NCBI GenBank assembly: GCA_965248265.1
Contig: CBDFJF010000002.1
Coordinates: forward strand, 1,472,001-1,536,000
Direction of reading: 5' to 3'
Source of the DNA: Candidatus Latescibacterota bacterium
GTDB lineage: Bacteria > Latescibacterota > UBA2968 > UBA8231
DNA: 64,000 bases
Part shown: piece by piece, positions 19,433 through 64,000 of the stretch
Numbering within the stretch: position 1 is the first letter of the stretch
Layout of the letters: every line of letters begins with the position of its first letter
Notes under the pieces: generated by a model
What the model was told of the DNA's origin: nothing
The model's input: the letters and a program-made list of their open reading frames with translations, nothing else
Database searches by the model: none
Program-made: the position numbers and the translations under genes

Positions 19433-19491
19433 GAGTTACAGAAACCGGACTAGTGCCCGATGTTTCAAAAGGACTGCCGGGATCATCGGTT

Positions 19492-23185: not shown

Positions 23186-24277
23186 ATGAAAAGACCTGAT
23201 CAACTGCCACCCGCAAATAATGAGCTTCCCACTGAGGCTGTGATGATGCAGGCTTTCCTGCAAGGCGATGCCTCGTTCGATGGCATCTTCATCACTGCCG
23301 TGCGTACCACCGGTATCTTCTGTCGACCGACGTGCACGGCGAAGAAGCCGCGACCAGAGAACGTCCAGTTTTACGGCACCCCTCGCGAGGCCTTGCTGTC
23401 GGGTTATCGTCCTTGTAAGCGTTGTCGACCCCTCGAGGCAGCCGGTGAAACGCCGGCCTGGCTGCACCCACTGCTGGCGGATCTCGATCAGGAGCCGACG
23501 CGCCGGTGGCGGGACGGTGACCTGCGCGAGCGGGGTCTGAGCCCGGAGCGTGTGCGTCGATGGTTCCAGACCAATCACGGCATGACCTTTCACGCTTACA
23601 GTCGCGCTCGGCGCCTTTGTTCAGCCCTGGGGCAGGTACAGGACGGTTCGCAGGTGATCCGCGCCGCCTTCGAGAGCGGTTACGGGTCGTTGTCCGGATT
23701 TAACGAGGCCTTCCAACGTTACTTCGGGGCCAGTCCGACTGATGTGGAAGGTTCCACCACGATTCGGGTCGATCGTTTTACCACGCCACTGGGTCCGATG
23801 CTGGTGGGTGCCACCGATTCCAGGTTATGCCTGTTGGAGTTCGTCGATCGGCGCATGTTGCCGACCCAGGTGCAGCGCCTGCGCCGGCGTCTGGGGGCCG
23901 TCTTCGTTCCCGATCGCAACAACATTATCGACCAGACTGAACGCGAGATCGGCGATTACTTTGAGGGCAGGCGAAGAGACTTCACGGTTCCCATTGTCAC
24001 CCCGGGCACCGAGTTCCAGGAGGCTGTGTGGTCGGCCTTGGGTCGCATTCCCTATGGACAGACCGTCAGCTACCGTGATCTGGCCGAGGAAGTCGGCCGT
24101 CCAGGTGCAGTACGGGCAGTGGGAACGACGAATGGCCTCAACGCACTGGCCATCATCGTGCCCTGTCACCGGGTGATCGGCGCCGACGGTAAGCTCGTCG
24201 GGTATGGCGGGGGGCTCTGGCGCAAGATGCGCCTGCTGGAACTGGAGACCGGTGTGGCGGCCGCACAACCCGGGTAG
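23186..24277 (+). CDS. ada: Bifunctional Ada transcriptional activator / O6-methylguanine-DNA methyltransferase
   Basis: Zn site TGIFCRPTC...RPCKRC, AraC HTH (AAFESGYGSLSGF), GTEFQ..VW, IPYG, PCHRV active site. Confidence 0.93.
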   Translation: MKRPDQLPPANNELPTEAVMMQAFLQGDASFDGIFITAVRTTGIFCRPTCTAKKPRPENVQFYGTPREALLSGYRPCKRCRPLEAAGETPAWLHPLLADLDQEPTRRWRDGDLRERGLSPERVRRWFQTNHGMTFHAYSRARRLCSALGQVQDGSQVIRAAFESGYGSLSGFNEAFQRYFGASPTDVEGSTTIRVDRFTTPLGPMLVGATDSRLCLLEFVDRRMLPTQVQRLRRRLGAVFVPDRNNIIDQTEREIGDYFEGRRRDFTVPIVTPGTEFQEAVWSALGRIPYGQTVSYRDLAEEVGRPGAVRAVGTTNGLNALAIIVPCHRVIGADGKLVGYGGGLWRKMRLLELETGVAAAQPG

Positions 24278-48256: not shown

Positions 48257-48435
48257 GCGACGGTCAGGTAACAACGCGGTCCGTAAATACTGGGGGTAGT
48301 GTTATACAGTTCGATGAGGGACAAGACCATTTCCGGGGTATGCGTAACGTACGGATTGGGCGTCTGGTGTCCATGGTCTGACCATCACAATCGGTAAATA
48401 GTTCCGGCGGCAGCGATCCGACTCGATCATGTCAC

Positions 48436-49572
48436 TTACTTCACAAATTCTCCGTCGGGATTCAGCAGGAAATCATAAATCGACTTGGCTACAACCCGAT
48501 TCCCCTCCGGGGTGTGGTGGCAGTGGTCGAAGAAGAGAGGCGTCGATGAGGCGTGGGCCTCACGCAATACGGGAAGCAAGTCGAGGAAGGGAACACCGAG
48601 CACTCCGGTGAGCTCCGTAAGTCGCCTCTGTGGATAGTCTTCGACGAACGCGGCTTCAACCTGAGCGCGGACAGGAAACCCCACGACACGGAGTTGAAAT
48701 CCGTTCTCATCCGCGAGACGCTTCATTTGCTCGAAGCAGGAAGATACGAGCGGCCAGGTGCGTGGACTCCAGGCGCCTCCCCAATCGCGGAACGCTCCGA
48801 GCACCTGATCATCGAACTGCCTCAAATCTTCGCGACCCCTATGACGTGAGGCGAGTTCAGCCTCGAATTCACTTCGGGCAGCTCGCGTGTCGAGGCGTCG
48901 CGAAACGGACGCCTTCACACGGTGGTAGGTCCACCACGTGTGCGAGGCGAGCCGACTCCCGTCAAGGGGGTAAGGCAGTGGTTTGATCCGAACCCCAGGG
49001 GACTCGTGAAAGTCGTTCAGATACCAGCAGACAATCACGACGTCAGGCTCTACGGAGATGCCCGTTTCCATCAGGACGGCGAGTTCATTCTCGATTCCAA
49101 TCGCTCCGATGCCGGCGTTGATGGTCTCCCACGCGAGGCCGTCAGATCGAGCCCTTTCTTCGACGACTCTCACGAAGGTTTCCGCTTCGGGCAAGTAGTC
49201 GCCGAAGGTGATCGAATCTCCGAGGAACAGGATACGGCTGCCACGCTTCTTTGCGATCTCACGGTTGCGGTAGCCTAGGCTGTTCGTTGAGATTTCGACT
49301 TTGCGGCCACTGAGCAGGTGATTTTCGATCGTGACCTGCGTGTTGGGACGGAGCCTGCCGCCGGTCGGCGTGTGCACGTAAATCGAAGATTGTCCAGGGT
49401 GGTTCGCGACGCTGTGTCGCGGTACAGGCGCCAACGGGTTGTAGCCCTGAGTTCTGACTCGGACGTGTAGAGGCTCGGGCAAGATAATCCGCGCCAGCCC
49501 TTCCGTGACGAGGAGAGATATCAGGACAGAGGCGCCGGCCAGTGTGAGCTTGTGGCGTGTTTCCTGTCTCAC
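48436..49572 (-). CDS. Membrane-anchored SGNH/GDSL hydrolase
   Basis: N-terminal TM, TNSLGYR, FLGDSITFG, INAG, YLND, DHCH (DxxH). Confidence 0.88.
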   Translation of the reverse strand: MRQETRHKLTLAGASVLISLLVTEGLARIILPEPLHVRVRTQGYNPLAPVPRHSVANHPGQSSIYVHTPTGGRLRPNTQVTIENHLLSGRKVEISTNSLGYRNREIAKKRGSRILFLGDSITFGDYLPEAETFVRVVEERARSDGLAWETINAGIGAIGIENELAVLMETGISVEPDVVIVCWYLNDFHESPGVRIKPLPYPLDGSRLASHTWWTYHRVKASVSRRLDTRAARSEFEAELASRHRGREDLRQFDDQVLGAFRDWGGAWSPRTWPLVSSCFEQMKRLADENGFQLRVVGFPVRAQVEAAFVEDYPQRRLTELTGVLGVPFLDLLPVLREAHASSTPLFFDHCHHTPEGNRVVAKSIYDFLLNPDGEFVK

Positions 49573-49807
49573 CTTGTCGCGTCTCGTTCCTCGCCCCCCG
49601 TCGTCGCGCCGTTCCAGAAGACGTCATTCGTCCCCGCGGCTCGTGGCCAAGTCGTGGGAGTCCCATTACCGTAGAATCTACATCAGAATCTGCATCGCCG
49701 TCGTCGGCAGCTCAGCAGTGGGCACCTGAATATGTTAAAGTAGAGTCACGACCGCTATTGATAAACTTACAACCCAATCCACCCAGATCGACAGCGGCAG
49801 CTCTTTC

Positions 49808-50345
49808 TTGACGACGGGGTGGTACTGGGGGTATACCACGCTGACGGAAGCCTCCCATTCCCTCTATGCCACTTCACCAGATGGGATCAATTGGGAGCGT
49901 TCCAATCTCGGACTCTTTGAGTGGAATGGCAGCAAAGCGAACAAAATCGCCTTCGACTCAGCTGATTGGAACCTCTCTCACGTAATTCGCGACGAGGGCG
50001 ACCCCGACCCACAGCTCCGCTACAAGGCGCTGTTCAGCGATGCGGCACACCTGATCGCCATCCCGGTTTTTCACCCGATGGTTTCGAGTAACTTTCCCGG
50101 ATGTGCTACCCATCCCGAGTCAGGAAACCTCCCAGCTCGCTCATGACCGGTCCGCCAATCGCTATCCGGCCACGGTGAAGCATCGGACCCAGTGGGGTCG
50201 ATCAGCGTGGTTAGTGGAGAGCACGGACTTCGTCCACTGGACCGATCCCGAACTGGTCATGCACTCCGACGAAATCGACCAGGAGAACCGGCGCGGACGG
50301 ATACAGGACGTCGTCGACGATCCGGCCTATCTGTCACCACAGCGG
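49808..50345 (+). pseudogene. Frameshifted, truncated remnant of a beta-propeller glycosidase-like gene
   Basis: YATSPDGINWERSNLGLFEWNGSKAN...DPDPQLRYKAL, then in other frames GFSPDGFE(stop) and GRSAWLVESTDFVHWTDPELV (S.D...W blade motifs). Confidence 0.65.
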
Positions 50346-50474
50346 CCAACGCCAGCACAAGCATTGGGGGGCTTCGTGGCCCTGTACATGCCACCTTCTA
50401 CGTTACGTAACTTCTCTTGTTCAAAGGAGTTAGATGCTATATCCTAATGGTTTACGAAGACGGGATAACGGACA

Positions 50475-51629
50475 ATGGCGGAAACAGACTCTGTAGAGTT
50501 ACACATTGGCACCCAAAAGCCACGCGGCAAATGGTGTACGGACGGCTCTATCGAGTTGTCGGAGCGTGATTTGCAGCCTGACGCTCGAGTTGGAGACAGG
50601 CTTGTAACGGCACCAGCCGGCGCGATTCGAGCCGGGATAAACACGCGCTCAGAGACCACCAGCACCGGCGAGGAATTTCACGCCACAACCGACGGAAACG
50701 TGCAAATCGACAAGAACGAGATAAGGATCGTGCCTCTTCTGGCCGTCGACACCGATATCGGATACGACACCGGCAATCTGGATTTTGAGGGGGATGTCTT
50801 CGTCAAGGGTGGCATCGGACGAGGATACTCAGTCAAGGCTGGTGGCAGTGTGGTCGTCGCCGGCAGCGTCGCCGAGGGATCATCGGTGATGGCAAAGGGC
50901 GATGTCATCGTGTGCCAAGGGATCGAAGGCCGCAAGACCAAGGTGATTGCCGTCGGTGACGTGCGCACACTGCACGTTTTGGAGGCGACCGTCCATTGCG
51001 CCGGCGACCTTACGGTCGGCAATCACGTCAAGGATGCCCATCTGCGCTGCGGCGGCCTGCTGACGGTCGACAAGGGCGAGGGCAATCTGGGTGGCAGCAT
51101 CGCCGGTGGGCAGTCCTGGGGCCGCAAAGGAGTGGAAGTGCACCAAGCGGGTAGTCCGACCGGAGCGTCGACGGCCCTGAATGCCGGTCTGCAGCCGGAC
51201 CAGGCCGGTCAACTCGACGCGCTGCAAAAGAAGATGAGCGAGCTCGGAAAGCAGATCGATCGGCACCTGTCACGCTTCCAACTGGAAGTCGTTGATGTGC
51301 CGCAGATTCAGAAAATGATAGCCGCCTCGACGGGGCCGCAGCGGAAGTTACTGGCGCGCGCAGCCAAGCAGCTGGGCGAATTATTGCAGATGAACCAGCG
51401 GCTACTAGATGAGCGTGGCGAGATCGAGAACAAGATGACCCGGTCGCTTTCGGGTGCCAAGATCAGGATAGCCGAGAAGGTGTACCCGGGCGTTGAGGTG
51501 CGTCTGGGTGACCACAAGCGGCGGCTGAAGGAAGCAGCGGAGGCGCTCTTGTTCTATGTGGAAGGCGAAGAACTGCGGGAAACGGCGCCAACCGGTGGCG
51601 GCAATTTGCAGACTGAGGCGGAGTCATGA
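50475..51629 (+). CDS. FapA/DUF342 family protein (short paralogue)
   Basis: DGSI, D.DIGYDTGNLDFEGDVFVKG.I..GYSVKAGG, GI.G....V.A.G, I.GG, coiled-coil insert, KVYPGVEVRLG. Confidence 0.88.
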   Translation: MAETDSVELHIGTQKPRGKWCTDGSIELSERDLQPDARVGDRLVTAPAGAIRAGINTRSETTSTGEEFHATTDGNVQIDKNEIRIVPLLAVDTDIGYDTGNLDFEGDVFVKGGIGRGYSVKAGGSVVVAGSVAEGSSVMAKGDVIVCQGIEGRKTKVIAVGDVRTLHVLEATVHCAGDLTVGNHVKDAHLRCGGLLTVDKGEGNLGGSIAGGQSWGRKGVEVHQAGSPTGASTALNAGLQPDQAGQLDALQKKMSELGKQIDRHLSRFQLEVVDVPQIQKMIAASTGPQRKLLARAAKQLGELLQMNQRLLDERGEIENKMTRSLSGAKIRIAEKVYPGVEVRLGDHKRRLKEAAEALLFYVEGEELRETAPTGGGNLQTEAES

Positions 51630-53080
51630 GAGTGGTTGCAGCCATGCTGTGGCTGTGCGCCGTCCTGCCAGCCGACAGTACGCAGCGACTGGTGTTTGCC
51701 GCTGCCCAGACAACGGACGCCTACGCTGCCGCAGCGGTTCTGGAAGAAGCGTACGGCCGCTTGGGAATCGACATCGAGGTCGATTATCTCCCCGGACTTA
51801 CCGCACTGACCCAGGCTAACGCGGGGATGTATGACGGTGACGTCCAGCGGGTCGCCGGCCTGGAGCGCCAGTACCACAACCTGGCTCAATTGTCGATCCC
51901 GGTGAACTACCTGCACGGCGCGGCTTTCTCGAAACGACGCGATGTGGTGGTTGCCGGATGGTATAGTCTGCGACCCTACCGAATAGGGATAGTCAGCGGA
52001 ATCAAGTTTGCAGAGGCAGGGACGCGCGGAATGGATGTGCGTGTCGGCGATTCGTACGTCGACCTGCTGGCATGGGTCGAGGCCGACCAGATCGACTTCG
52101 CGATCATGCCAGTCATCAACGGTCTTGTAGCCTTGAAGTCCCTCGAGGATTCTCGAATTCAGCAAGCCGGCGTCGTGCTCGAGACCTTGTTTCTCTACCA
52201 CTATGTCAACAAGAAGCACCAGGAACTCGTGCCGAGGCTAGAAAAAGTTTTGAACCAGATGTTGACGGAGCGGGCAACCAAGCGCATACGGGACGAGCTC
52301 TACGCAGATCTACTGGGCATCGAAGTAGCGGATCTGGAGCGCGCGGGGACTCCCTCTCGTCAGTCGGTCGACTCATCGGCTCCTATTGCTGCTCGTCAGC
52401 CAGGTAACGAATCTCGGCAGGGAGCCACCAAGCGTCTCGAATTCTCCACGAGCGCTGAGTCTCGTGAGACGGAAGCCGCTGCCGCGGTTCTGCGAGAGGC
52501 GTACCGACGGCTCGGTTACGAGATCGAGCTCCGCAAGTATGAGGGGCACTCCGGGTTGAGCCAGGCGAACGCAGGTTTGGTCGACGGAGAGCTCATGCGC
52601 ATCGATGGACTCAGCCGACGCTATGACAATCTGGTGCAGATTTCGATTCCATTGAACTACGCCCCCATGGTCGTGTTCGCGCGAGACGCAGACTTTAACG
52701 TCGGGGGCTGGAATAGCCTGCAACCGTACCGAATCGGAATTGTCCAAGGAGTTCTCCTGAGTGAACAGGGAACGCGCGGCATGGACACGCGCCCCGCCGA
52801 TTCGTTTGACCAACTGGTTCGATGGTTGGCCAACGGCAAGATCGATGTTGCCGTAACGCTGCGCGTGAGCGGTCTGATGACCCTGCGGGACTATCCTGAC
52901 TCCGGTGTCCGGGAGCTACCGGGTATGCTGGAAACGATATTTCTCTACCACTACCTGCATTCGAAAAACACCGGCCTCGTCCGTGACGTGGAGCGGGTGT
53001 TGAAGAGCATGCTCCTCGATGGCACGCTGAGGAATATTCACGAGCAATCATACGCCACTCTGCTCGGGACGAAATCCTGA
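51626..53080 (+). CDS. Tandem (two-domain) periplasmic solute-binding protein, family 3-like
   Basis: Signal peptide; two clearly homologous halves, each AAAAVL.EAY.RLG...QANAG..DG...W.SL.PYRIGIV.G...GTRGMD...LET.FLYHY. Confidence 0.85.
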   Translation: MRVVAAMLWLCAVLPADSTQRLVFAAAQTTDAYAAAAVLEEAYGRLGIDIEVDYLPGLTALTQANAGMYDGDVQRVAGLERQYHNLAQLSIPVNYLHGAAFSKRRDVVVAGWYSLRPYRIGIVSGIKFAEAGTRGMDVRVGDSYVDLLAWVEADQIDFAIMPVINGLVALKSLEDSRIQQAGVVLETLFLYHYVNKKHQELVPRLEKVLNQMLTERATKRIRDELYADLLGIEVADLERAGTPSRQSVDSSAPIAARQPGNESRQGATKRLEFSTSAESRETEAAAAVLREAYRRLGYEIELRKYEGHSGLSQANAGLVDGELMRIDGLSRRYDNLVQISIPLNYAPMVVFARDADFNVGGWNSLQPYRIGIVQGVLLSEQGTRGMDTRPADSFDQLVRWLANGKIDVAVTLRVSGLMTLRDYPDSGVRELPGMLETIFLYHYLHSKNTGLVRDVERVLKSMLLDGTLRNIHEQSYATLLGTKS

Positions 53081-53084
53081 CGCC

Positions 53085-56000
53085 ATGGAAAAGCCAGTAA
53101 CACAGGGCCAAATCCAGGTTCGCTCGATCGTCATATTGATCGCCGTTGTGTTGACGGTGACCGCGTGTGGTTTCTATGTGGTGTACCAACAAACGCTTGA
53201 GGGGCGCAAGGTGCAGCTGCAGGAGCTTGTTCGCTCTCAGGCGCGACTGATGGAAGCGGTCGGCAAGTTTGACGCCTTCTTCCACAGCGGCTTGGAAGCG
53301 GGCGCGAGCATGGCGGCCACTCTCAGCCAGTTCAAGGAGGCGCATCGCAAGTACACGGGCTTCGGTGAAACCGGCGAGCTGGTGCTGGGGCAAAGGAGAG
53401 AACATCAGATCGAGTTCCTGCTTCCGGTGCGAAGCCGCGACTTCCAGATTCCGCCTCCGGTACCATGGGACGGAGAGCTAGCAGGGCCGATGCGGTTGGC
53501 GCTTTCCGGCCAGTCAGGTGTGGTGGAAGCCCTCGACCACTCGTCGAACAACGTGTTGGCCGCCTACGAGTACCTCCCGTTTCTGGAACTAGGGCTCGTT
53601 GCCAAGATCGATAAGTCCGAGATCCTCACACCCTTCAAACGCGCGGCTGAGGCTTCAGGCATCATCGCCTTAATCGCCATAGGCATCGCGACGCTGCTCA
53701 ATGTTCGCAGCGTGGGACCATTGATCCGCAGTGTTACTGAGCGTGAACAGAACATTCGCACCCTCCTGGAGTCGACGCCGGACGGGATGGTGATCGTGGG
53801 CACCGATGGCCTGATCACGATGGTCAATGGCCGCACTGAAGTGTTGTTTGGGTACCATCGAACCGAGCTGATCGGTCAGCCCGTGGAGATGCTGGTGCCG
53901 GAGCGTTTCAAGGATCAACATCCCTCTCATCGGTCCGACTATCACGACCACCCAAGCTTGCGGGAAATGGGAGCAGGCATGGAACTCCTGGGATGCCGCA
54001 AGGATGGCAGCGAGTTTCCTGTCGAGATCAACCTGAGCCACATCAGCTCCGGCGGACAGACGCAGGTACTGTCAGTAGTCCGCGATATTACCGCTCGAAA
54101 GGAAGCAGAGAGAGAGCTTAAGAAGCTATCCCGTGCCGTTGAGGAGAGCCCGGCAGCCGTGTTCGTGACCGATCGCGACGGACGAATCGAATATGTCAAC
54201 AAGGTGTTCACCGACATCACTGGATATTCATTGGACGATGTCGTCGGCCAAAACCCGAGGCTGCTCAAATCCGGCGACCAGTCACCAGAGTTCTATCAGG
54301 AACTCTGGGACACGATCCTCGCCGGTCGGGCCTGGAGCGGGGAGATGGTCAACCACACCAAGGATGGGCACGACTTCTGGGCCAGTGAGCTAATTTCTCC
54401 ACTCACCGATGACGGTGAGGTGACCCACTTCGTCGCCGTTATGGAGGACATAAGCGCACGCAAGAAAGCAGAGGCACACGAGCACATTATCCACAGGGCC
54501 TCGCAGATGGCAGCAGAGACTGATTCGTTCGAGGCTTCCCTTCAGATGTGCGTCGATATCATCTGCGAGATGACCGGGTGGCCCGTCGGTCACGCCTACC
54601 TGGCCCCGAATGAGGAAACCGGCGGCGAGCGCCTGCAACCGACTGAAATCTGGCATTGTGACAGTCAGCGTCACGCCGAGTTCAAGGAAGTGACTGAGCG
54701 CACCGAATTTGCCAGTGGCGAGGGACTGCCCGGTCGCATCTGGGAATCGGGGGAGGCCGCCTGGGTCGTCGATGTTCAGAAAGACCCGAACTTTCCTCGC
54801 GCCAAACTGTGCGAAGAAATCGGTGTGTGCGGGGCTTTCGGATTCCCGATCAAGATTCGGGAAGAGACGGTCGCTATCCTCGAATTTTTCGCCGAGAGGG
54901 AGATGTCCTCCGACGAGGATCTGCTGCGAACGGTGGAAACAGTCGGGGAGCAGGTGGGGCGCGTGCTAGAGCGTCGCCGTGCGGAGAAGGCGATCAGGGA
55001 GAGCAAGAACTTCCTCCTCAGCGTCATCGACAACACTTCGGCGGCCATCTACGCCAAGGACCTGGATGGAGGGTACCTATTGGTCAACCGAACTCTGGCT
55101 GACATGGTCGGTGTTGAGCCGTCGGCAATGGTCGGCAGGACGCCCTTCGACTTTTTTCCGCCTGCTGTCGCCGAGCAGCATCTGGCCAACGACCGCCGAG
55201 TCGTCGAGGCAGGACAATCTTTGATCGAGGAGGAGCAAGCCGTCGTCGATGGGGTCGAGCGGACATTCCTCTCCATAAAGTTCCCGATCGTTGATTCGGG
55301 TGGTGATGTGAGCGCCATATGTGGCATGTCCACGGACATTTCAGAGCGCAAGCAAATGGAGCGGGATTTAGTGCTCGCCAAAGAGCAGGCCGAGTCCGCC
55401 ATGCAGGCGGCAGACGACGCCAATGCTTCCAAGAGCTTGTTCGTGGCCAATATGTCGCATGAGATCCGCACACCCATGAATGCGATCCTCGGGTTCTCGG
55501 AGATTCTTGGGGGGCTGGTTCGCGATGCACAGCAACGGCAATTCTTGGCGTCGATTCAGTCGAGCGGAAAATCCCTGCTGGGATTGATCAACGACATCCT
55601 GGACCTGTCCAAAGTGGAGGCAGGGAAGCTGGACCTCGATTACCGAGCTTTCGACGTCGCGGCTGTGTTTCGTGAGATGGAAGCCATATTTGCGCAGAAG
55701 ATCGCCGAGAAAGGGATTGACTTCGTCATCGAAATCGATCCGTCCGTGCCGAAGGCGCTGATACTGGATGAAACTCGTTTGCGGCAGATCCTGCTCAACA
55801 TCATCGGCAATGCGATCAAGTTCACGGACGAGGGTCACGTTGCACTGACCGCATTGAAGACGAATCCGGAGGCAGATGGCAGCAAGGTCGATCTCGTGTT
55901 TTCGATTCAGGACACCGGTGTCGGCATTCCCGAGGACCAGCAGGACAAGATCTTCGGGGCCTTCGAGCAGACGAAGGGGCAGAGCTACACCAAGTTCGGG

Positions 56001-56897
56001 GGCACCGGCCTCGGCCTGGCGATCACGAAGAGGCTGATCGAGATGATGAATGGCGACGTCACGGTGACGAGCCAACTCGGGGTGGGAAGCACCTTTCAGG
56101 TCGCGTTGCGAGGCGTGGATGTCGCTGCCATCGATGAACTGGCTGACGATGACGACCGTGCCAGTATTCAAGGGCTCGCGTTCGCCAGATCCAAGATCTT
56201 GCTCGTAGACGACATCGAGACCAACCGACAGCTGGTGTTGGCCTATCTACAGGAATATGACTTCGAAATGCTGGAGGCGACTAACGGTCAGGAAGCCGTT
56301 GATCAGGCAAAGAGGTATCATCCCGACCTTGTCTTGATGGATATGCGCATGCCGGTGATGAGCGGGTACGACGCTACTATCGCAATCAAAGATGATGACA
56401 AGACCAAGGATGTTCCAGTGGTGGCGTTGACCGCCTCTGTGATGAAGCACGACGAGGGCAAGGTTCGCGAGGTGTGCGACGGGTACCTGCACAAACCGGT
56501 GACCAAAGCACAGCTGGTCATGGAGTTGACGCGGTTCCTTCAACACACGCAGTCTGCGGCAGCGGCTGAGATGGCAGACCAGGTCTCCGCGGGCGCCCAG
56601 TGGGCACCGGAATCGCTGGACGACTCAGCGCGCGACAAAATTGGCGGGCTGGTGAAACAGCTTGAAGAACAACGTGCTGCGTGGGAGGATATCAGTGCCA
56701 CGCTGACGATCAATGACATCGAGGCATTCGCGGGGGGTATGCGGGAACGGGCCGCAGAGTTTGACTACCCACCTCTGCAGGAATGGGCACAGCGGCTGGC
56801 AGATCAAGCGAGCCAATTCGACCTGGCGGCGATGCCGGCAACGCTGGGGGAATTCCCCACCGTAATCGAGCAGGCCCAGAAGGTGGCGAAGGGATAG
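53085..56897 (+). CDS. Hybrid sensor kinase: TM/Cache-like-PAS-PAS-GAF-PAS-HisKA-HATPase-REC-helical tail
   Basis: Two TM segments, three PAS repeats, GAF (GEGLPGRIW), ANMSHEIRTPMNAILG, NIIGNAIKFT, DTGVGI, GGTGLGL, LVDD..DMRMP..KP. Confidence 0.93.
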   Translation: MEKPVTQGQIQVRSIVILIAVVLTVTACGFYVVYQQTLEGRKVQLQELVRSQARLMEAVGKFDAFFHSGLEAGASMAATLSQFKEAHRKYTGFGETGELVLGQRREHQIEFLLPVRSRDFQIPPPVPWDGELAGPMRLALSGQSGVVEALDHSSNNVLAAYEYLPFLELGLVAKIDKSEILTPFKRAAEASGIIALIAIGIATLLNVRSVGPLIRSVTEREQNIRTLLESTPDGMVIVGTDGLITMVNGRTEVLFGYHRTELIGQPVEMLVPERFKDQHPSHRSDYHDHPSLREMGAGMELLGCRKDGSEFPVEINLSHISSGGQTQVLSVVRDITARKEAERELKKLSRAVEESPAAVFVTDRDGRIEYVNKVFTDITGYSLDDVVGQNPRLLKSGDQSPEFYQELWDTILAGRAWSGEMVNHTKDGHDFWASELISPLTDDGEVTHFVAVMEDISARKKAEAHEHIIHRASQMAAETDSFEASLQMCVDIICEMTGWPVGHAYLAPNEETGGERLQPTEIWHCDSQRHAEFKEVTERTEFASGEGLPGRIWESGEAAWVVDVQKDPNFPRAKLCEEIGVCGAFGFPIKIREETVAILEFFAEREMSSDEDLLRTVETVGEQVGRVLERRRAEKAIRESKNFLLSVIDNTSAAIYAKDLDGGYLLVNRTLADMVGVEPSAMVGRTPFDFFPPAVAEQHLANDRRVVEAGQSLIEEEQAVVDGVERTFLSIKFPIVDSGGDVSAICGMSTDISERKQMERDLVLAKEQAESAMQAADDANASKSLFVANMSHEIRTPMNAILGFSEILGGLVRDAQQRQFLASIQSSGKSLLGLINDILDLSKVEAGKLDLDYRAFDVAAVFREMEAIFAQKIAEKGIDFVIEIDPSVPKALILDETRLRQILLNIIGNAIKFTDEGHVALTALKTNPEADGSKVDLVFSIQDTGVGIPEDQQDKIFGAFEQTKGQSYTKFGGTGLGLAITKRLIEMMNGDVTVTSQLGVGSTFQVALRGVDVAAIDELADDDDRASIQGLAFARSKILLVDDIETNRQLVLAYLQEYDFEMLEATNGQEAVDQAKRYHPDLVLMDMRMPVMSGYDATIAIKDDDKTKDVPVVALTASVMKHDEGKVREVCDGYLHKPVTKAQLVMELTRFLQHTQSAAAAEMADQVSAGAQWAPESLDDSARDKIGGLVKQLEEQRAAWEDISATLTINDIEAFAGGMRERAAEFDYPPLQEWAQRLADQASQFDLAAMPATLGEFPTVIEQAQKVAKG

Positions 56898-56901
56898 CCC
56901 C

Positions 56902-57330
56902 ATGAAACAATCAAACTGCGTCTACTGGCACGTCCCGCTCGGGAAGTGGTGTGCGATCGCAGCCATTTTCGCATTTCTGGCTGAGGCCGGGGCTCAAGAG
57001 GAATGGTTTCCGCACATGAAGGACGCCTACTGGCTGGCCGTCAACTACGGCATTGCCGATGAAGCCCAACGGCTGGGCGTGCGCATGGATTCGAAAGAAG
57101 CAGGGGGGTACGAAAACCTCGATGCCCAGATCGCCCAGGTACAGGAGTGTGCGACCGGCGGAGCGGACGGAGTGATTCTGGCCGCGATCTCGTACACCGG
57201 TTTGGACAGCATCGTAGCTGCTCTGGCCGAGCAGGGCATCCCTGTGGTGGACAATATCAACGGCATGGCGTCGGAACGCATTGCGGCCAAGTCTCTGGTC
57301 TCTTTTGGCGAGATGGGGTATAAGGCTGGA
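56902..57330 (+). pseudogene. torT: Truncated TorT-like periplasmic sensor protein
   Basis: FPHMKDAYWLAVNYG..EA.RLGV....EAGGY.NL..Q..Q..C...MGYKAG matches the TorT N-lobe. The C-lobe is absent. Confidence 0.75.
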
Positions 57331-57467
57331 CATGACTGTTTGCCCGTTGGCAATGGGGCGACCGTGTCGTCGACGCGGCTGGCATGTTCGACATGGTCGA
57401 GATATCGCGCAACCTGGTCTGCTACAGTGACGTCATCCACCAACTGGCAATGAAGGAGCGCGCATGA
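57331..57467 (+). pseudogene. C-terminal remnant of a third hybrid kinase
   Basis: An alternative frame reads QWGDRVVDAAGMFDMVEISRNLVCYSDVIHQLAMKERA*, aligning with the tails of both flanking kinases. Its TGA overlaps ATG 57464. Confidence 0.65.
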
Positions 57468-60196
57468 CGCCGGGCCATTCTTCCAATGCCAACGGCCGGG
57501 TCTACCGCCTGGTTCACCAAAAGCCGCTGCTTGTTTTCGGGGTAATCCTCGTGATCGGGTTTGCGGCCGTGACCTACCATGCCACCCGCCTGTCCAGCAG
57601 TCTGCTGGAGTCCAGCGCTGTCAGCAACGCGAGACGGTACACTGAAGTCATTGCGGAGTTCCGCTCGCTCTACACCTCGGAAGTCGTCAACCGGCTGCAG
57701 GCCCACGCGGTGGACGTCACGCACGACTACGAGTCGACGGATGGAGCCATTCCGTTGCCTGCTACCCTCAGTATGTTGTTGGGTGAGCAGATCGGCGTTG
57801 GCGGTAGCGGCACCGAGTTTCATCTGTACAGTCCGTACCCCTTCCCATGGCGAGAGCATTCGGCAGGATTGAGCGACCGTTTTCGCAAGGAGGCGTGGAG
57901 CGCGTTGAGCGTAGACCCAGGAAAGCCCTTCTACCGATTCGACCAGTACGGAGGCAGGTCCTCGTTGCGTTATGCCACCGCAGATCTGATGCGCGCTGAG
58001 TGTGTCAGTTGCCACAACTCTCACCCGGATACTCCAAAAAACGATTGGCGCGCCGGAGATGTCCGTGGCGTGCTCGAAGTCGTGATGCCGCTCGAAGCGG
58101 TCAAGGAAGAGAGCAGAGCGGGTCTATGGGGGACTATCGCTTTGCTCACAGGCATGGGACTGCTGAGCCTGGTCTGCGTAGCCCTGGCAATACGTCAACT
58201 AAAGAGCGGCGCGCGTCGGCTGGAAAGTGAAGTCGAGGTGAGGACGGCTGATCTCCAGGACGAGATCCGCGAAAGAGAGGAGGCGGAGCGAGAACTCCGG
58301 ACGAGCGAGCTGCACAAAGGTGCTGTGCTGGATTCGGCCCTCGACTGCGTCATCGGCATGGATCACCGCGGCAAGATCACGGAATTCAATCCCGCGGCGG
58401 AGCGCACGTTCGGCTACCGGCGCGAGGATGTACTCGGTGAGGAACTGTCCGACAAGATCATCCCCCCCGATTTTCGGGAGAAGCACAAGAGCGGTTTGGC
58501 GCACTACCTGGCAACTGGCGTAGGGCCGGTACTCGGCCAACGCATCGAGATCACGGCCATGCGCCGCGATGGAACAGAGTTTCCGGTCGAGCTCGCCATA
58601 GTGCCGATCGACGTGGATGAGACGCCGCTCTTCACCGCCTACCTGCGGGACATTACGGAACGACAGCAGGCAGAAGAAGGCCTTCGCGAGGCGGTGGGGC
58701 GGGCTGAGTCCGCCAACAGTGCTAAGACCACATTTCTGGCGAACATGTCACACGAAATCCGCACGCCGCTCAACGCCATCCTGGGATTTACGGAGATTCT
58801 GAGTGGTCGAATCCAGGAACCACGTCAGAAAGAGTACCTGGATTCGATCCAGGCAAGTGGCATGGCGCTGGTGACGCTGATCGATGACATCCTGGACCTG
58901 TCGAAAGTCGAGGCTGGCATCCTGGAAGTGAAACCGAGTCCTACCGATGTGCGCGCCATCCTACAAGACACCGAGCGAATTTTCTCTCAAAAAGCTCGGG
59001 ACAAGGGGGTGAGACTCGATGTCGAGATCGATCCGGGCATGCCCGACGTGTTGGTACTGGACGGCGGCCGCACGAGACAGATGTTGACCAACCTGGTTGA
59101 TAACGCGCTCAAATTCACCCACCAGGGACATGTCCGGGTGACGGCTGCGGGGTCGCGCAAGACGGATGATGCCGCACATGTGGACCTGGTTTTGGCGGTT
59201 GCCGATACTGGCATCGGAATCCCGGACAACCAGCGCGAACGAATCTTTGGCGTCTTTGCACAGCAGGAAGATCAGAGCATCAACGAGTATGGCGGTGTGG
59301 GCAGGGGGTTGGCGCTGATCAAGGCGATTATTGATCGGACCCACGGGGAAATTTCGGTGGATAGCCAGGTGGGGGTAGGCAGCACGTTCACGGTAACCTT
59401 CCGGAATGTCGAGGTGGCCTCGGTGGAACAGATCGCCATGGCCGAGGCGGAAGATCTCGACCCGGACTCTGTCTCTTTCGATTCCGGCACCGTTCTGATT
59501 GCCGATGATGTCAGCGCCAACCGCGAACTGGTCAAAGGATTTCTGGATGGTCAACCGCTCAGCTTCATCGAGGCAGAAAACGGCGAAGAAGCGATCGAGA
59601 TGACCAAACGGCAACGGCCCTCCCTGATTCTGATGGACATTAAGATGCCGGTGTTGGACGGTTTCTCGGCGTCTCAGCGTCTGAAAGGGGATGAGCAGCT
59701 GCGGCAGACTCCGATCATCGCATTGACAGGCTCCGTGTTGCGCGAAAGCGAGGAGGAGATCCTGCGGGTGTGTGACGGATTTCTGCGCAAGCCGGTGACC
59801 CGGCAGGATCTGATTCGGGCGATGAGCCGCTTGATTTCCCATACTATAGAAAGGCAAGATGAGCCAACCTCCACAGATGCGGACAGCGAAAATGCAGTAG
59901 AGTGGTCAGTCGAGCTGCTCACATCCGTAGTCCGAGGGCGGCTCCCGGGACTGATTTCTGAACTCGAGGGCCAGCGGGGTACGTGGGAGGAAGTAGCCGC
60001 AACGTTGACGATCGACGAGGTCGACAGTTTCGCATCGCGGATGGTCGTGTTGGGCAAAGAGTTTGAGTACCCGCCGCTTTCCGGGTGGGGGCGGCAACTG
60101 GCCTCCCAGGTCGGTGCGTTTGACATGAATGGCATACGGGAAACGCTCTCGGGGTTTCCCGGGATGATAGAGGAGATCAAGTCGATCTCTGTTTAA
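57464..60196 (+). CDS. Hybrid sensor kinase with DUF3365 (Tll0287-like) heme-c periplasmic domain, PAS, HisKA, HATPase, REC and helical tail
   Basis: IPLPATL, YSPYPFPWR, LRYA.AD.M...CVSCHNSHP..PK.DW..GDVRGVLEV, SHEIRTPLNAILG, NALKFT, DIKMP. Confidence 0.92.
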   Translation: MTPGHSSNANGRVYRLVHQKPLLVFGVILVIGFAAVTYHATRLSSSLLESSAVSNARRYTEVIAEFRSLYTSEVVNRLQAHAVDVTHDYESTDGAIPLPATLSMLLGEQIGVGGSGTEFHLYSPYPFPWREHSAGLSDRFRKEAWSALSVDPGKPFYRFDQYGGRSSLRYATADLMRAECVSCHNSHPDTPKNDWRAGDVRGVLEVVMPLEAVKEESRAGLWGTIALLTGMGLLSLVCVALAIRQLKSGARRLESEVEVRTADLQDEIREREEAERELRTSELHKGAVLDSALDCVIGMDHRGKITEFNPAAERTFGYRREDVLGEELSDKIIPPDFREKHKSGLAHYLATGVGPVLGQRIEITAMRRDGTEFPVELAIVPIDVDETPLFTAYLRDITERQQAEEGLREAVGRAESANSAKTTFLANMSHEIRTPLNAILGFTEILSGRIQEPRQKEYLDSIQASGMALVTLIDDILDLSKVEAGILEVKPSPTDVRAILQDTERIFSQKARDKGVRLDVEIDPGMPDVLVLDGGRTRQMLTNLVDNALKFTHQGHVRVTAAGSRKTDDAAHVDLVLAVADTGIGIPDNQRERIFGVFAQQEDQSINEYGGVGRGLALIKAIIDRTHGEISVDSQVGVGSTFTVTFRNVEVASVEQIAMAEAEDLDPDSVSFDSGTVLIADDVSANRELVKGFLDGQPLSFIEAENGEEAIEMTKRQRPSLILMDIKMPVLDGFSASQRLKGDEQLRQTPIIALTGSVLRESEEEILRVCDGFLRKPVTRQDLIRAMSRLISHTIERQDEPTSTDADSENAVEWSVELLTSVVRGRLPGLISELEGQRGTWEEVAATLTIDEVDSFASRMVVLGKEFEYPPLSGWGRQLASQVGAFDMNGIRETLSGFPGMIEEIKSISV

Positions 60197-60216
60197 CCAA
60201 CCACAAGGGAATTGAG

Positions 60217-61215
60217 ATGGCTGAAGACAAGGGTCCGAGAGTTCTGATCGTCGACGACACGGTGCAGAACATCCAAGTGTTGGGCACGGTGCTGCGTGAG
60301 CAGAACTACCAGATCAACGTCGCCCAAAACGGGCTGCAGGCGCTGGAGTCGGTCGAAAAGGTTCGCCCCGATCTGATTCTCCTCGACGTGATGATGCCGG
60401 AAATGGACGGCTTCGAGGCCTGCAAGCGGCTGAAGGCAAACGACGAAACCAAAGACATCCCCATCATTTTTCTCACCGCGAAGGTCGAGACCGAGGATGT
60501 CGTGCACGGGTTCGATCTGGGGGCCGTCGACTACGTGACGAAGCCATTCAACGCGACCGAGCTGCTGGCGCGAGTGCACACCCATCTGGAGCTGCAACGG
60601 CTTCGTCGGGAGCTCGAGGAGTACAATCAGATGCTCGAGCAGAAGGTACAGGAGCGCACGGCCGAACTGCAGGTGGCACACAAGAAGCTGCAGTTGCAGG
60701 TGAAGGAGTTGGATGGCCGCGACAAACTCGGGCACGCGCAGACCTCGTGCGGGTCGATTGGTGAAGGCTACGAACGAATTCTCGAGGTGTTGCAGGAGGT
60801 GCTCGAAGTCGGCAAGGCGCGGATCTATCGCGAAGATGAGTCGGGGGCTCAACTCGCTGTTGTGGCCGGACTCGGGCTATCGGGACCCGGAGTGCTGCAG
60901 CAGGCAGAGGATCTGGGAGAGGAACCGTCGGTGGCTGCCGGGTCAGATTCCCCGGTTGCGCAGGCATTCGCCGATGGGAAACCACTTTCGGGGGACGAGG
61001 GAGAAGCCGTGGTACCGATCGCCTATGGTGACCACACACTCGGTGTGGTCAGCGTCGAGGGCATGGTCAGTGAGGATCATGAGCAGAGTGTCCTGCAGGA
61101 GGTGCTCTGGAGATTGAGCAGAGAGGCGGGTACCCTGTGCCACGCACTCGAGCTGAACAAGGATCTCGAAGCCGGCGATATCGATGTCGCAGCGCTGCTC
61201 GACATAGAGGAATAG
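60217..61215 (+). CDS. Response regulator: REC, coiled coil and GAF-like domain, with no recognisable output domain
   Basis: VLIVDDT..N, PDLILLDVMMPEMDGFE, FLTA, DYVTKPF, LEQKVQERTAEL, then GAF-like (VVPI.YG..TLGVV.V). Confidence 0.88.
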   Translation: MAEDKGPRVLIVDDTVQNIQVLGTVLREQNYQINVAQNGLQALESVEKVRPDLILLDVMMPEMDGFEACKRLKANDETKDIPIIFLTAKVETEDVVHGFDLGAVDYVTKPFNATELLARVHTHLELQRLRRELEEYNQMLEQKVQERTAELQVAHKKLQLQVKELDGRDKLGHAQTSCGSIGEGYERILEVLQEVLEVGKARIYREDESGAQLAVVAGLGLSGPGVLQQAEDLGEEPSVAAGSDSPVAQAFADGKPLSGDEGEAVVPIAYGDHTLGVVSVEGMVSEDHEQSVLQEVLWRLSREAGTLCHALELNKDLEAGDIDVAALLDIEE

Positions 61216-61250
61216 TCCCACTGCAATAACGGGCCGAACACTGAGAACGT

Positions 61251-63470
61251 ATGGCTGAAGAGAATACAACAGAGGAACAGGCTGCTGTCGATCCGGGTGG
61301 CGAAGGCGAGGGGGAGGCTGCTGCCGAACCGCTGTCAGCAGTCAATGCCGCGCTCGAGGATTCCGGAGGCGAGCTGGTTACGCCCGAAGAGGACAAGCGG
61401 CTGCACTGGATCGCCAGAGGGCTCGACCGTGAGCTCGAGCACGCCGTACTGCGCAAGGCGGGTGACGAGGCGGGCGCCGACGCGGGCCAGTGGTTCTATC
61501 AGCTCGATTTCACTGAGTGCACGCTGGCGATTCGGGCCGATTGCATGAAAGCGTACCTCGCCAGTGTATCGAAACTCGCCAGTATGTCCCGCGTTTCCGA
61601 TATCGTCGGGCAATCGAATTTTCGGCAGCTGAAGGAGCCGTCGAGCAAGGAGATCCGAAAGTCGTTGATGAGCTCACCCGTACGCTGGTTGCCGTTGTGC
61701 GACGGAGAGTCGCCGCAGGCGGCGGGGGCTACGACGCTGTGCATCCGTGGCGACACCGAGAGCGTGATCGCACGTGAGACGCTGGAATCGTTGTCCTCAG
61801 ATCTGAAGCAATTGTTCGACGCTGATTTCGCCAGCGAGGAATCAGCCCAAGACTACCGTGCCATCGTTGCCAGCGCCGATGACGTGATCGCCCGCGTAAA
61901 CCCGGATCAGGAGGAACGCGAAGGCGAGGATGTCTTCGGCCGGCCCATCACTCCTGACCACCGTACGGCCCAACCGGAAGTGGGCCTACACGTAGAGCGT
62001 GACGGGGACGAGTACAGGGCAAAGCGCTACGGCTATGTGGCGCTGTTGAAGAACAAACTCTCAGTAGTGTCGCCGCTGTTCACCGATTGTTACGTGACCT
62101 CCGTCCACTGGTGTGTGCTGGATCACCGCTCGGCGGAGGTTTCTGCCGCACACATAGACGAGTGGCTGACCGATCTGGGCGTCGTCGAGGGAGTCGAACG
62201 CACGGCCATAGAGCACATGGCGCAGCAGATCACTGCTGGCGAACACCGTCTCGGATTGCATCTGATTGCCAGCGGCACGCCTCCCGTCAACGGCAAAGAC
62301 GCCGAGGTCCAAATTCTGCTGGACCTACGGTCGCGCTCTGGTGAGCAACAAGACGATGGATCGACCGATTTCAAACGTGTGAATTTCAAACCAAACGTGG
62401 GCGAAAGGCAGGAGATCGCGCGTCTGACGCCGGCGACAAAGGGTACTGATGGTCGCGACGTCATGGGCAACGCCGTGTCATGCGTCGACGGCAAGCATCA
62501 CGCGCTCAAAGTGGGGGTCGGGGTGCAATCTACCAAGGATGAATACAGGGTTGAACACTACTACGGTGCGATCGAGGGGGCGTTGAAGTACACGAGGAAG
62601 GAAATCGCCGTTGTCGATACCCTGGTCATCGAGGGAGACGTAGGGTTCGAGACCGGCAATCTGGAGTTCAAGGGAGAGGTAATCGTCAAAGGATCCATTG
62701 GTCAGGGTTTCTCCGTCAAGGCGACCGGGGATGTGGTGGTTTTCGACAAGGTCGACGCGGGTGCCACCATAGCCTTGGGGGGTAATGTCCGAGTCGGCCG
62801 CGGTGTCATGGGCCGCAAGACGAAGATCATGGCTCTCGGGGACGTGCATGCCCAGTTCATTCACGACGCGCAGGTTCGGAGCTCGGGAGATATTCTCGTC
62901 GGCGATTTCATTCATCATGCAACCTTGAGGGCCGATGGTACTGTCGCCGTCGCCAAGAGTACCGGGCAGCGAGGGGGTATCCTCTGTGGTGGGCAGGTGT
63001 GGAGCCGGAAGGGCATCGCCTTTCACGTCGCCGGCAGCTCCAATGCCATGACCACGGAGCTGGCAGCGGGGGTCGATCCGGAGCAGGCAAAGGAGCTCGA
63101 TCTGCTGTCTCGCAAAATCGACGAGAGCAATAAACATATATCCAGGCAACTGTCTCGCTTTCATCTGAAGACCGTCGATGTGGCGGCTATCACAAAATTG
63201 CTCAGTGCTTCGACTGGCCCCCAGAAGAAGGTATTGGCGCGAGCGGCGAAACAGCTCGGTCAAATGGTTCAGCTTCACCAGAAGCTGGCGGTGTCGAAGA
63301 AGGAGATCGAGGACGCCATGGCCCGGGGACTCGATATGGCCTATATCGCCGCCGAGGAGCTTGTCTATCCCGGCGTTCAGGTCCGTATCGGCGACCACAC
63401 TCGAAAGATCACCGACGAGATGAAGAAGCCGTTTTTTAGCCTGTTTCAGAATCAATTGATGGATCACTAG
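61251..63470 (+). CDS. FapA/DUF342 family protein (long paralogue)
   Basis: IASGTPPVNGKDA, DGSTDFK, G.DG.DV.G, GDVGFETGNLEFKGEV.VKG, GFSVKATG, VYPGVQVRIG. Confidence 0.9.
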   Translation: MAEENTTEEQAAVDPGGEGEGEAAAEPLSAVNAALEDSGGELVTPEEDKRLHWIARGLDRELEHAVLRKAGDEAGADAGQWFYQLDFTECTLAIRADCMKAYLASVSKLASMSRVSDIVGQSNFRQLKEPSSKEIRKSLMSSPVRWLPLCDGESPQAAGATTLCIRGDTESVIARETLESLSSDLKQLFDADFASEESAQDYRAIVASADDVIARVNPDQEEREGEDVFGRPITPDHRTAQPEVGLHVERDGDEYRAKRYGYVALLKNKLSVVSPLFTDCYVTSVHWCVLDHRSAEVSAAHIDEWLTDLGVVEGVERTAIEHMAQQITAGEHRLGLHLIASGTPPVNGKDAEVQILLDLRSRSGEQQDDGSTDFKRVNFKPNVGERQEIARLTPATKGTDGRDVMGNAVSCVDGKHHALKVGVGVQSTKDEYRVEHYYGAIEGALKYTRKEIAVVDTLVIEGDVGFETGNLEFKGEVIVKGSIGQGFSVKATGDVVVFDKVDAGATIALGGNVRVGRGVMGRKTKIMALGDVHAQFIHDAQVRSSGDILVGDFIHHATLRADGTVAVAKSTGQRGGILCGGQVWSRKGIAFHVAGSSNAMTTELAAGVDPEQAKELDLLSRKIDESNKHISRQLSRFHLKTVDVAAITKLLSASTGPQKKVLARAAKQLGQMVQLHQKLAVSKKEIEDAMARGLDMAYIAAEELVYPGVQVRIGDHTRKITDEMKKPFFSLFQNQLMDH

Positions 63471-63489
63471 CACGGGAGTCGTCAACTCT

Positions 63490-63810
63490 ATGGCATGGGT
63501 CTACACCGCGGTCGCCCTCGGCATGCTGGGGATATTGCTTGAAATCGGTCGCTCTTATAGCAAGACGAGCAAGCAGTTGATTCTCGAGCAGAAGGACCTG
63601 TACCGGGAAATCGGGAATCACCGAAATTCGATCAACGTGCTGGAACGTGATAGGAAGACCGGCGAAGACTCAGTGGCGCGCTTGACGATGGAGAAGGGAG
63701 AGGTCTCGAAAGAGCTCAACTGGCAGCGTCAGAATCTGGACGATCTCTTGCGCAGAGACGCTGGCACTCGCCTGGGCCGCCCCAAGATCGATCGGGACGA
63801 GAAGGAATAG
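63490..63810 (+). CDS. Small N-terminally membrane-anchored coiled-coil protein
   Basis: Hydrophobic N-terminus (WVYTAVALGMLGILL) followed by a charged heptad-like region. Confidence 0.7.
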   Translation: MAWVYTAVALGMLGILLEIGRSYSKTSKQLILEQKDLYREIGNHRNSINVLERDRKTGEDSVARLTMEKGEVSKELNWQRQNLDDLLRRDAGTRLGRPKIDRDEKE

Positions 63811-63822
63811 GGTAGAAGGTCG

Positions 63823-64000
63823 ATGGAAACCGCCGCCCTGATTGCCGCACTACTGCTGGCTCTGATTAGTGGGGTAGCCAAGTTCAGCAGCAGTTTGCAT
63901 CTGAGCAGGCTGCGCCGACAGAACACCGAGCTGATGAATGAGCGTGATCTCCTGCAGGGACAACGCTCGGCGCTGGAGACGGCACTGGTGGACGTACAGA
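63823..64000 (+). CDS. Second membrane-anchored coiled-coil protein (partial)
   Basis: Not in the ORF track. Manual translation METAALIAALLLALISGVAKFSSSLHLSRLRRQNTELMNERDLLQGQRSALETALVDVQ..., open to the window end. Confidence 0.7.
   Translation, partial: METAALIAALLLALISGVAKFSSSLHLSRLRRQNTELMNERDLLQGQRSALETALVDVQ

Follow-up and report, generated by a model that had tools for sequence, protein, structure and literature searches.

The FapA protein of Borrelia burgdorferi (BB0267) is described as a set of small N-terminal domains followed by a C-terminal triangular beta-solenoid with a two-helix coiled coil (PF20250 and PF03961); the solenoid-plus-coiled-coil part is reported to bind all five MotA subunits and to mask their rotor-facing surface, and FapA has been proposed to be a clutch which holds the flagellar stators disengaged, with an upstream control that the authors call unknown (bioRxiv 10.64898/2026.10.14.759253). 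For the FapA of Vibrio vulnificus and V. cholerae, reported together with EIIA-Glc and HubP, control is post-translational and comes from a partner that binds or not according to its phosphorylation state, since FapA is said to bind only dephosphorylated EIIA-Glc (PMC6877527). The Helicobacter pylori protein is reported as a cytoplasmic FapA which binds the cage protein PilM and limits motility, seen as migration, via contacts with the motor (bioRxiv 10.64898/2026.10.23.761471). In this work we analysed a 64,000 nucleotide stretch of contig CBDFJF010000002.1 from a Candidatus Latescibacterota bacterium (hereafter the window), in which an operon at 50475-64000 carries two fapA-like genes, FapA-short and FapA-long, together with membrane hybrid histidine kinases and a stand-alone response regulator composed of a receiver (REC) and a GAF domain (REC-GAF). 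The part of this operon which is conserved in related genomes is composed of one or more kinases, followed by REC-GAF and then by the long FapA, and is thus smaller than the system proposed in the initial annotation of the window.

The locus differs from each of the described systems in its gene context and in the likely nature of the partner. The Borrelia gene is situated in a flagellar operon (PMC11607428) and the protein has relatives with a Jag_N domain, while FapA-long of the window contains one more FapA_N-like repeat and is encoded downstream of kinases and REC-GAF. The Vibrio partner is a component of the sugar phosphotransferase system; in the window a two-component receiver protein is the candidate for this role, and the signals would enter through membrane kinases instead of sugar uptake. 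Helicobacter FapA belongs to a divergent subgroup missed by PF03961, and it is not reported to be linked to a kinase or regulator. A literature search, which took in few subscription journals and no preprint supplements, turned up no published connection between FapA and a two-component regulator; the figures of FapA homologues in those supplements may already show some that are linked to REC-GAF. Other flagellar brakes and clutches, i.e., YcgR with c-di-GMP, EpsE and CheY, are likewise small cytoplasmic signalling proteins which act directly on the rotor or the stator, but none of them is known to use REC-GAF or FapA, and the window operon contains no cyclic-nucleotide enzyme.

The operon is composed of nine co-directional open reading frames (ORFs) on the + strand, with intergenic distances ranging from a 4-nt overlap up to 35 nt. 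The features are as follows, domain assignments here and below being from Pfam unless stated otherwise.

50475..51629, +, FapA-short, 384 aa, PF03961 only
51626..53080, +, tandem periplasmic solute-binding protein with two SBP_bac_3-like halves
53085..56897, +, membrane hybrid histidine kinase 1 (HK1), 1270 aa, from Pfam, transmembrane-like segments and the tail alignment
56532-56894, +, tail domain of HK1, from the tail alignment
56902..57453, +, TorT-like binding protein with kinase remnant, 183-aa ORF, from a partial Pfam match and tblastn
57464..60196, +, heme-c hybrid histidine kinase 2 (HK2), 910 aa, from Pfam, the CXXCH motif and transmembrane-like segments
59831-60193, +, tail domain of HK2, from the tail alignment
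60217..61215, +, REC-GAF response regulator, 332 aa, from Pfam, an AlphaFold2 model and Foldseek
61251..63470, +, FapA-long, 739 aa, FapA_N and FapA with an extra FapA_N-like repeat
63490..63810, +, small membrane-helix protein 1, 106 aa, with an N-terminal hydrophobic segment
63823..64000, +, small membrane-helix protein 2, start only, cut by the end of the window

All of the ORFs named in the initial annotation were found on the + strand in the order and at the coordinates given there, and its view of a single tight operon without a DNA-binding or nucleotide-cyclase output is borne out by the ORF coordinates and the Pfam content. Chance is not at issue here, because the objects are genes and not a statistical pattern. 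Within the operon five terminator-like sites were found where 10.2 were expected, i.e., there was no excess, and neither promoter-like nor terminator-like sites rose above the level of shuffled sequence; no RNA family was detected across 48000-64000.

The conservation of the kinase, REC-GAF and FapA triad was addressed in species-representative genomes with an alignment of 12 FapA-long relatives, which returned 11 loci (L001 to L011) assigned to Latescibacterota, to one "Gemmatimonadetes" and to Desulfobulbia/Desulfobacterota. Because these loci were found via one solenoid motif, the sample leans to the FapA-long subfamily. In 10 of the 11 loci the gene immediately before FapA encodes REC-GAF: where the distance was measured, in eight operons (the window, L001-L005, L007, and L009), it is 4-49 nt, and in L006, L008, and L010 the tblastn matches to the two proteins are adjacent. 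All seven loci which extend 800 nt or more upstream of REC-GAF (L001, L002, L004-L007, and L009) have a histidine kinase gene immediately before it; L003, L008, and L010 are cut upstream by the contig end and were left out of this count. Since L005-L010 are close kin (regulators 81-89% identical) and L001 and L004 are close on the solenoid tree described below, the loci amount to about five independent lineages including the window, and not to eleven. FapA-long, REC-GAF and FapA-short have their nearest relatives among metagenome proteins; the named relatives and the loci of highest identity are recorded as Candidatus Latescibacterota, of the FCB group. The Desulfobulbia loci have one non-hybrid kinase and a REC-GAF/FapA pair only about 25-27% identical to that of the window. 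Matches to REC-GAF and to FapA-long were also present on contigs of the same size (897378, 101410, 13483, and 56363) in four further assemblies, which suggests co-occurrence of the two genes there, adjacency not being proven.

Upstream of this conserved pair the sensors vary. The locus L004 is syntenic with the window, with the tandem binding protein, an HK1-like and an HK2-like kinase, REC-GAF and FapA-long, and lacks FapA-short and the TorT-like branch. L002 instead has a Reg_prop/Y_Y_Y propeller kinase and a pair of TorT-like binding protein and kinase, and L001 combines an HK2-like kinase with a TonB-dependent receptor and a YfiR/DUF4154 kinase. Sensor variants found at the conserved REC-GAF/FapA pair are thus of the heme-c Tll0287 type, the PAS/GAF type with a tandem binding protein, the TorT-like type with its kinase, the Reg_prop/Y_Y_Y type and the YfiR/DUF4154 type. 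The idea that several inputs converge on one output is upheld by this pattern, as the Latescibacterota-type loci differ in their kinases and keep REC-GAF and FapA. The predicted recurrence of the whole neighbourhood held for its core, with the counts given above, and failed for FapA-short and for the membrane-helix proteins.

Some further features of these loci should be mentioned. In L001 the TonB-dependent receptor at 3265-8902 is followed by the kinase with the YfiR/DUF4154 periplasmic domain, which carries two receivers, a true histidine phosphotransfer (Hpt) domain and the tail described below, and stands before REC-GAF and FapA. Kinase genes at 646-2980 and 18500-20620 of the same locus have their matches spread over three frames or are broken into two ORFs, which reflects either frameshifts or indel errors of long-read assembly. 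A receiver-HD-GYP regulator, the receiver of which is 37-40% identical to that of the window, is encoded on the - strand 3-4.5 kb downstream of the Desulfobulbia module (L005 14480-16033, L007 14518-16071, and L009 8604-10157).

The regulator itself was compared across 41 aligned sequences. Among the receiver residues, D13, D14, T87, and K109 do not vary and D57 shows a conservation of at least 90%; the linker carries at its end the signature ELxGRDRL, in which E164 and L165 are invariant, and an acidic motif is conserved at the C-terminus. A receiver was detected in 41 out of 41 members, with GAF_3 in 19, GAF_2 in 14 and GAF in 13 of them (E<=1e-3). The GAF_3 score of the window protein itself is 24.1, which is under the Pfam cut-off of 27, so the GAF assignment is founded on the matches of the orthologues and on the fold. 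In the AlphaFold2 model (mean pLDDT 87.2, pTM 0.58) a receiver (8-112) is followed by a single 65-residue helix (113-177) and a GAF-like alpha/beta domain (181-319); the acidic C-terminal motif is modelled with low confidence, as would be expected for a docking peptide. The best Foldseek matches to the model were the REC-helix-GAF modules of 6oap, 6oaq, and 6ob8 (E 3e-15), followed by receiver-only matches. These entries, a dual-sensor histidine kinase, share the REC-helix-GAF order over about 344 aligned columns, with an identity of 16-17% and a TM-score of 0.36 that is low because the domains hinge. According to the entry titles, they represent the input part of a kinase with a bilin-binding GAF, whereas the protein of the window stands alone and has no further domain behind it. 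Only REC and GAF-type families were found, and no DNA-binding or enzyme family was detected in any of the 41 members; the output is therefore a protein contact or the binding of a ligand.

Receivers 70-78% identical to that of REC-GAF were also found fused to adenylate/guanylate cyclase, HD-GYP or kinase outputs (e.g., P0133, P0148, P0110, P0128, and P0119), some of them on contigs of the same size as contigs of REC-GAF orthologues. That a single type of receiver is joined to several outputs hints at a common set of kinases which might also feed parallel second-messenger branches.

FapA-long has both of the domains expected of the family, i.e., FapA_N (PF20250) with 109.8 bits against a cut-off of 27 and FapA (PF03961) with 181.9 bits against a cut-off of 31. 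Along the protein an unconserved segment (residues 1-40) is followed by a FapA_N-like repeat (about 112-273), by FapA_N (296-445) and by the beta-solenoid with its hairpin (456-731). Alignment of residues 40-295 with residues 296-455 by hhalign (probability 93%, E 2.5e-7) revealed within the former a second, divergent FapA_N-like module at residues 112-273, and this module accounts for the approximately 200 extra residues of the FapA-long subfamily; the Desulfobulbia FapA proteins likewise have two FapA_N stretches. The only solved relative found by sequence was the C-domain of MinC. No receiver-FapA fusion was present among the five longest FapA homologues examined, and the labels DUF4388 and fumarase attached to one homologue (P0038) were rejected as they had no aligned stretch.

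FapA-short is composed of the beta-solenoid and the helical hairpin without FapA_N (PF20250); its PF03961 match spans residues 88-366 with 167.7 bits against the cut-off of 31 and covers positions 2-271 of the 272 in the profile, as compared to 1-267 for FapA-long. The protein is 44% identical to residues 418-736 of FapA-long, and its stop codon overlaps the start of the tandem binding-protein gene by 4 nt. Ten orthologous protein clusters were found, all of the solenoid-only form. One orthologue lies on a contig of the same size (897378) as a FapA-long and a REC-GAF orthologue, and another on a contig of the same size (9217 nt) as a REC-GAF. In a solenoid tree of 64 domains, built by a quick search and with 11 rows of too short a solenoid match left out, the REC-GAF-linked FapAs cluster together (30 rows, SH-aLRT 92) and FapA-short nests within the clade of Latescibacterota long FapAs (25 rows, SH-aLRT 96). 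Given the ten solenoid-only clusters, this nesting and the lack of a counterpart in the syntenic L004, FapA-short is a derived, lineage-specific accessory paralogue which is recurrent yet not universal. A layout with two FapA proteins, which had been taken as the basis of the system, is thus not general, and in L004 an oxidoreductase occupies the place of FapA-short. The best relatives are 90-91% identical for REC-GAF and 81-94% for FapA-short, and just 56% for FapA-long; many of the relatives of FapA-short are truncated. The FapA-long gene may be fragmented below the length window of the search in those assemblies, or it may be evolving much faster.

Two intact membrane hybrid kinases are encoded by the operon. 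Both have the HisKA, HATPase_c and Response_reg families, and the SHEIRTP box and the receiver residues DD...D...T...K are present in their translations. HK1, which has an orthologue in L004, is composed of a transmembrane segment, a periplasmic part of about 150 aa for which no solved relative was found, a second transmembrane segment, and then PAS, PAS, GAF, PAS, HisKA, HATPase, REC and the tail. The gene upstream of it encodes the tandem binding protein, with a signal-like N-terminus, two halves 45% identical to each other, a weak match to SBP_bac_3 and weak matches to the solved structures of YckB and AncQR. A 54% identical orthologue is found in the same position in L004, and the protein is probably the ligand receptor for HK1. 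In HK2 a Tll0287-like domain between two transmembrane-like segments precedes PAS, HisKA, HATPase, REC and the tail; it carries the heme-binding motif CVSCH at residue 180, which reads CVNCH in the orthologues of L004 and L001, and no solved relative of this heme-c domain was found.

A third sensor of the TorT/TorS type is no longer intact in the window. The 183-aa ORF between HK1 and HK2 matches only positions 6-111 of the 258 in Peripla_BP_4, i.e., the first lobe. At the matching position L002 encodes a complete binding protein of 362 aa and, behind it, a kinase of 660 aa, an order of genes which is that of TorT and TorS, with the binding-protein gene directly upstream of the membrane kinase. 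By tblastn, 57007-57333 of the window is 67% identical to residues 68-176 of this binding protein, and 57342-57434, in another frame, matches the last 31 or so residues of the L002 kinase, weakly so (E 0.002 in a 1-kb target). Since both L002 genes are matched by fragments, about 2.4 kb have been lost from the window relative to L002. The annotation of this ORF as a TorT-like fragment with the remnant of a third kinase was confirmed in this way, and the label TorT-like holds because TorT ranks second among the solved relatives of the intact L002 protein (E 2e-50). In TorS there is a true phosphotransfer domain, and the kinase signals to a DNA-binding regulator; the window copy of the pair is broken, and the kinases of the window differ in having an unannotated tail and no Hpt domain.

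This tail, of about 100 residues, is shared at the C-terminus by all eight kinases that stand before REC-GAF in the window, L001, L002, and L004, with the consensus RLPEL...TLTINE.E.FA...YPPL..WG.RL..QA..FD. It was absent from all seven other kinases in the same DNA, namely the one at 9660-11387 of the window, two downstream in L001, one in L003, and those of L005, L007, and L009. The tail is thus not essential to the triad, as the Desulfobulbia modules do without it. A profile search of 1.84 billion representatives identified 2961 proteins at E<=1e-3, 790 of them at E<=1e-10, and in 150 out of the 150 matches listed the tail ended within 25 residues of the C-terminus. Of 48 long tail-bearing proteins scanned all had HATPase_c, 47 HisKA, 37 a receiver and three an Hpt domain, and their sensors were of many types. 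No Pfam or NCBIfam model covers the tail, a profile search of solved structures gave no relative by sequence, and it contains no conserved histidine. The possibility that the tail is a degenerate Hpt domain was not supported: the untrimmed tail matched 14 Hpt domains in hhalign (probability 67%, E 5e-5) solely over columns of a receiver fragment, the match to a single Hpt domain was confined to the same fragment, and after trimming the probability against the 14 domains fell to 0.1% (E 0.56). The tail may serve to dock the regulator, an Hpt protein or FapA.

On this basis we tentatively propose, as a reading that falls a little short of an even chance, that the operon is a multi-input two-component module, the output regulator of which would act on FapA by direct contact and through FapA on the flagellar stator or pole. 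That the kinases, REC-GAF and FapA-long form one pathway is quite likely; if they do, the target is probably flagellar, by analogy with the FapAs already studied. In the proposed scheme the two live hybrid kinases, and formerly the third and TorT/TorS-like one, would phosphorylate the stand-alone REC-helix-GAF regulator, with HK1 probably reading a ligand via the tandem periplasmic binding protein and HK2 probably reading redox or gas via its periplasmic heme-c domain. Phosphorylation would alter the REC-GAF dimer via the long helix, and with it the binding to FapA-long, which is encoded 35 nt downstream. In turn, the beta-solenoid of FapA would take hold of its target or let it go. By analogy with Borrelia this target would most probably be the MotA stator of the flagellum, at its cytoplasmic face, or else the pole or the cage of the flagellum, as described for Vibrio and Helicobacter. 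Motility would thus be tuned after translation. FapA-short, which lacks the regulated N-terminal part, could address this target too, either as a competitor or as a partner.

Several observations weigh against this proposal. Hybrid kinases need, by textbook logic, a histidine phosphotransfer domain in order to reach a second receiver. No Hpt domain was found in the operon proteins by Pfam, and a profile of the 14 Hpt domains run over six frames of the window and of 10 other loci matched only the L001 domain that is itself part of the profile; such a domain may be encoded at another site in the genome. The locus sample is small and biased, having been collected via a single solenoid motif with the few independent lineages counted above, and in L011 a more distant FapA follows a CBS-domain gene and has no REC-GAF beside it. 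A flagellar neighbourhood is also lacking: no fla, che or mot family was detected among the large ORFs of the window, and the only gene of this type among 81 ORFs scanned in the flanks of the loci is that of a zinc-binding chemoreceptor in L005, roughly 4 kb upstream. Elsewhere fapA is usually reported in a flagellar sub-module with sigma-28 and FlgV, unlike here (PMC11607428). Finally, the two-hybrid assays described for the Helicobacter protein gave no FapA-MotA or FapA-FliG signal (bioRxiv 10.64898/2026.10.23.761471).

The missing phosphotransfer domain could mean that the genes are merely co-located, with REC-GAF serving as a sink for phosphate or modulating the hybrid kinases in response to a ligand, the true output lying elsewhere (cyclase, HD-GYP or kinase regulators) and FapA being simply co-transcribed. 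The receivers fused to such outputs, with their high identity to that of REC-GAF, fit this explanation. We nevertheless regard it as unlikely: REC-GAF and FapA remain closely spaced in lineages far apart from each other, among them Desulfobulbia with its non-hybrid kinase, and in a mere sink there would be no need to conserve a GAF domain and a C-terminal motif. The absence of flagellar genes from the window and the locus flanks leads in another direction, i.e., the same signalling core with a target outside of the flagellum, where the solenoid would cap another motor of MotA type (PorLM/GldLM of type IX secretion, ExbBD or TolQR) or would belong to a MinC-like polar or division scaffold. In keeping with this are the affiliation of the relatives to the FCB group, the resemblance of the FapA solenoid to the C-terminal domain of MinC, and, at a distance of 2.2 kb upstream, an oppositely oriented PorU-like gene which scores under the curated cut-off (299 versus 420 bits) and whose product has a weak type IX sorting tail. 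This PorU-like neighbour is however not kept by the operon in L001, L002, and L004, no data tie FapA to any other motor, and all FapAs studied so far are flagellar. Latescibacteria single-cell genomes have, moreover, been reported to encode flagella (PMC4454575). We consider this reading, the signalling core with a non-flagellar target, to be rather unlikely. A bolder form of the same idea, in which an FCB-group bacterium with type IX secretion genes would use its two FapAs, under control by phosphorylation, to cap a different 5:2 motor of MotA type (PorLM/GldLM, ExbBD or TolQR) and the tail would be a docking domain that lets thousands of hybrid kinases reach the regulator without an Hpt domain, is a long shot; were it true, FapA would be a general clutch for ion-driven stators.

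The initial annotation had suggested, as a possibility, an integrating platform for the kinases, made of two FapA scaffolds which the two small coiled-coil proteins tether to the membrane. The small genes do follow FapA-long closely, at 19 and 12 nt, and encode a hydrophobic N-terminus with a charged remainder: in the 106-aa protein residues 1-20 are hydrophobic and the rest is highly charged (43% charged residues), and in the second protein a hydrophobic segment (1-25) is followed by a charged stretch. The overlap of FapA-short with the first sensor gene, i.e., translational coupling, would also suit a platform. However, neither small protein had a counterpart in the 11 loci by tblastn even at E 10, save for a 22-residue chance match, and the operons of L001, L002, and L004 end with FapA-long, the next gene being convergent and unrelated (a sulfatase or a glutamyl-tRNA synthetase); L004 also lacks FapA-short, and the second small gene, cut by the window end, may open another unit. 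Nothing in these data speaks for a role of the small proteins as tethers, and a platform of this kind is highly improbable. No Pfam or NCBIfam family above its cut-off was found for either small protein; identities as Rz-like LysB and as LapA were rejected since the matches were far under the cut-offs (15.6 bits for LapA_dom in the second protein, against 28). The 106-aa protein is either lineage-specific or unrelated to the core.

If the proposed flagellar module is correct, environmental signals would be converted through phosphorylation into a change of motor engagement without transcription or cyclic nucleotides. An operon that couples several sensor kinases to FapA via a small phospho-accepting adaptor suggests, by analogy with the described FapAs, a new way to switch the flagellar motor, and the triad offers a concrete candidate for the missing control of FapA in about five lineages from up to three phyla. 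Should the organism turn out to have no flagella, the finding would gain interest rather than lose any. The analysis also singled out three parts which can be followed in their own right, i.e., the REC-helix-GAF family with ELxGRDRL and the acidic C-terminal motif, the FapA subfamily with a doubled N-terminal module, and the kinase tail, of about 100 residues and without a family model, in approximately 3000 protein clusters.

With regard to the surroundings of the operon, no fla or che gene and no DNA-binding regulator was found adjoining it on the upstream side, and the window stops 530 nt past FapA-long. The initial statement that the window contains neither class of gene stands for fla and che among the large ORFs, and does not stand for DNA-binding regulators: an Ada-type methyltransferase with an AraC-type helix-turn-helix is encoded at 23168-24277 (+), 26 kb from the operon and unrelated to it. 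Strings for sigma-28 and sigma-54 gave no strict match anywhere in the window. One very loose sigma-28-like string, TAAAG-16 bases-TTGATAA at 49736-49764 (+), is the only such site near the operon. Upstream genes on the opposite strand include one of GDSL type, and between these genes and the operon lies about 0.9 kb of decayed ORF pieces. Two of these, at 49800-50450 (+), are in different frames and without a family, their sole match being GH32-like (E 0.11), and probably represent a decayed gene just upstream of the operon. The PorU-like gene mentioned above encodes an 1878-aa C25 peptidase (42638-48274, -), the presence of which suggests that the organism may possess type IX secretion.

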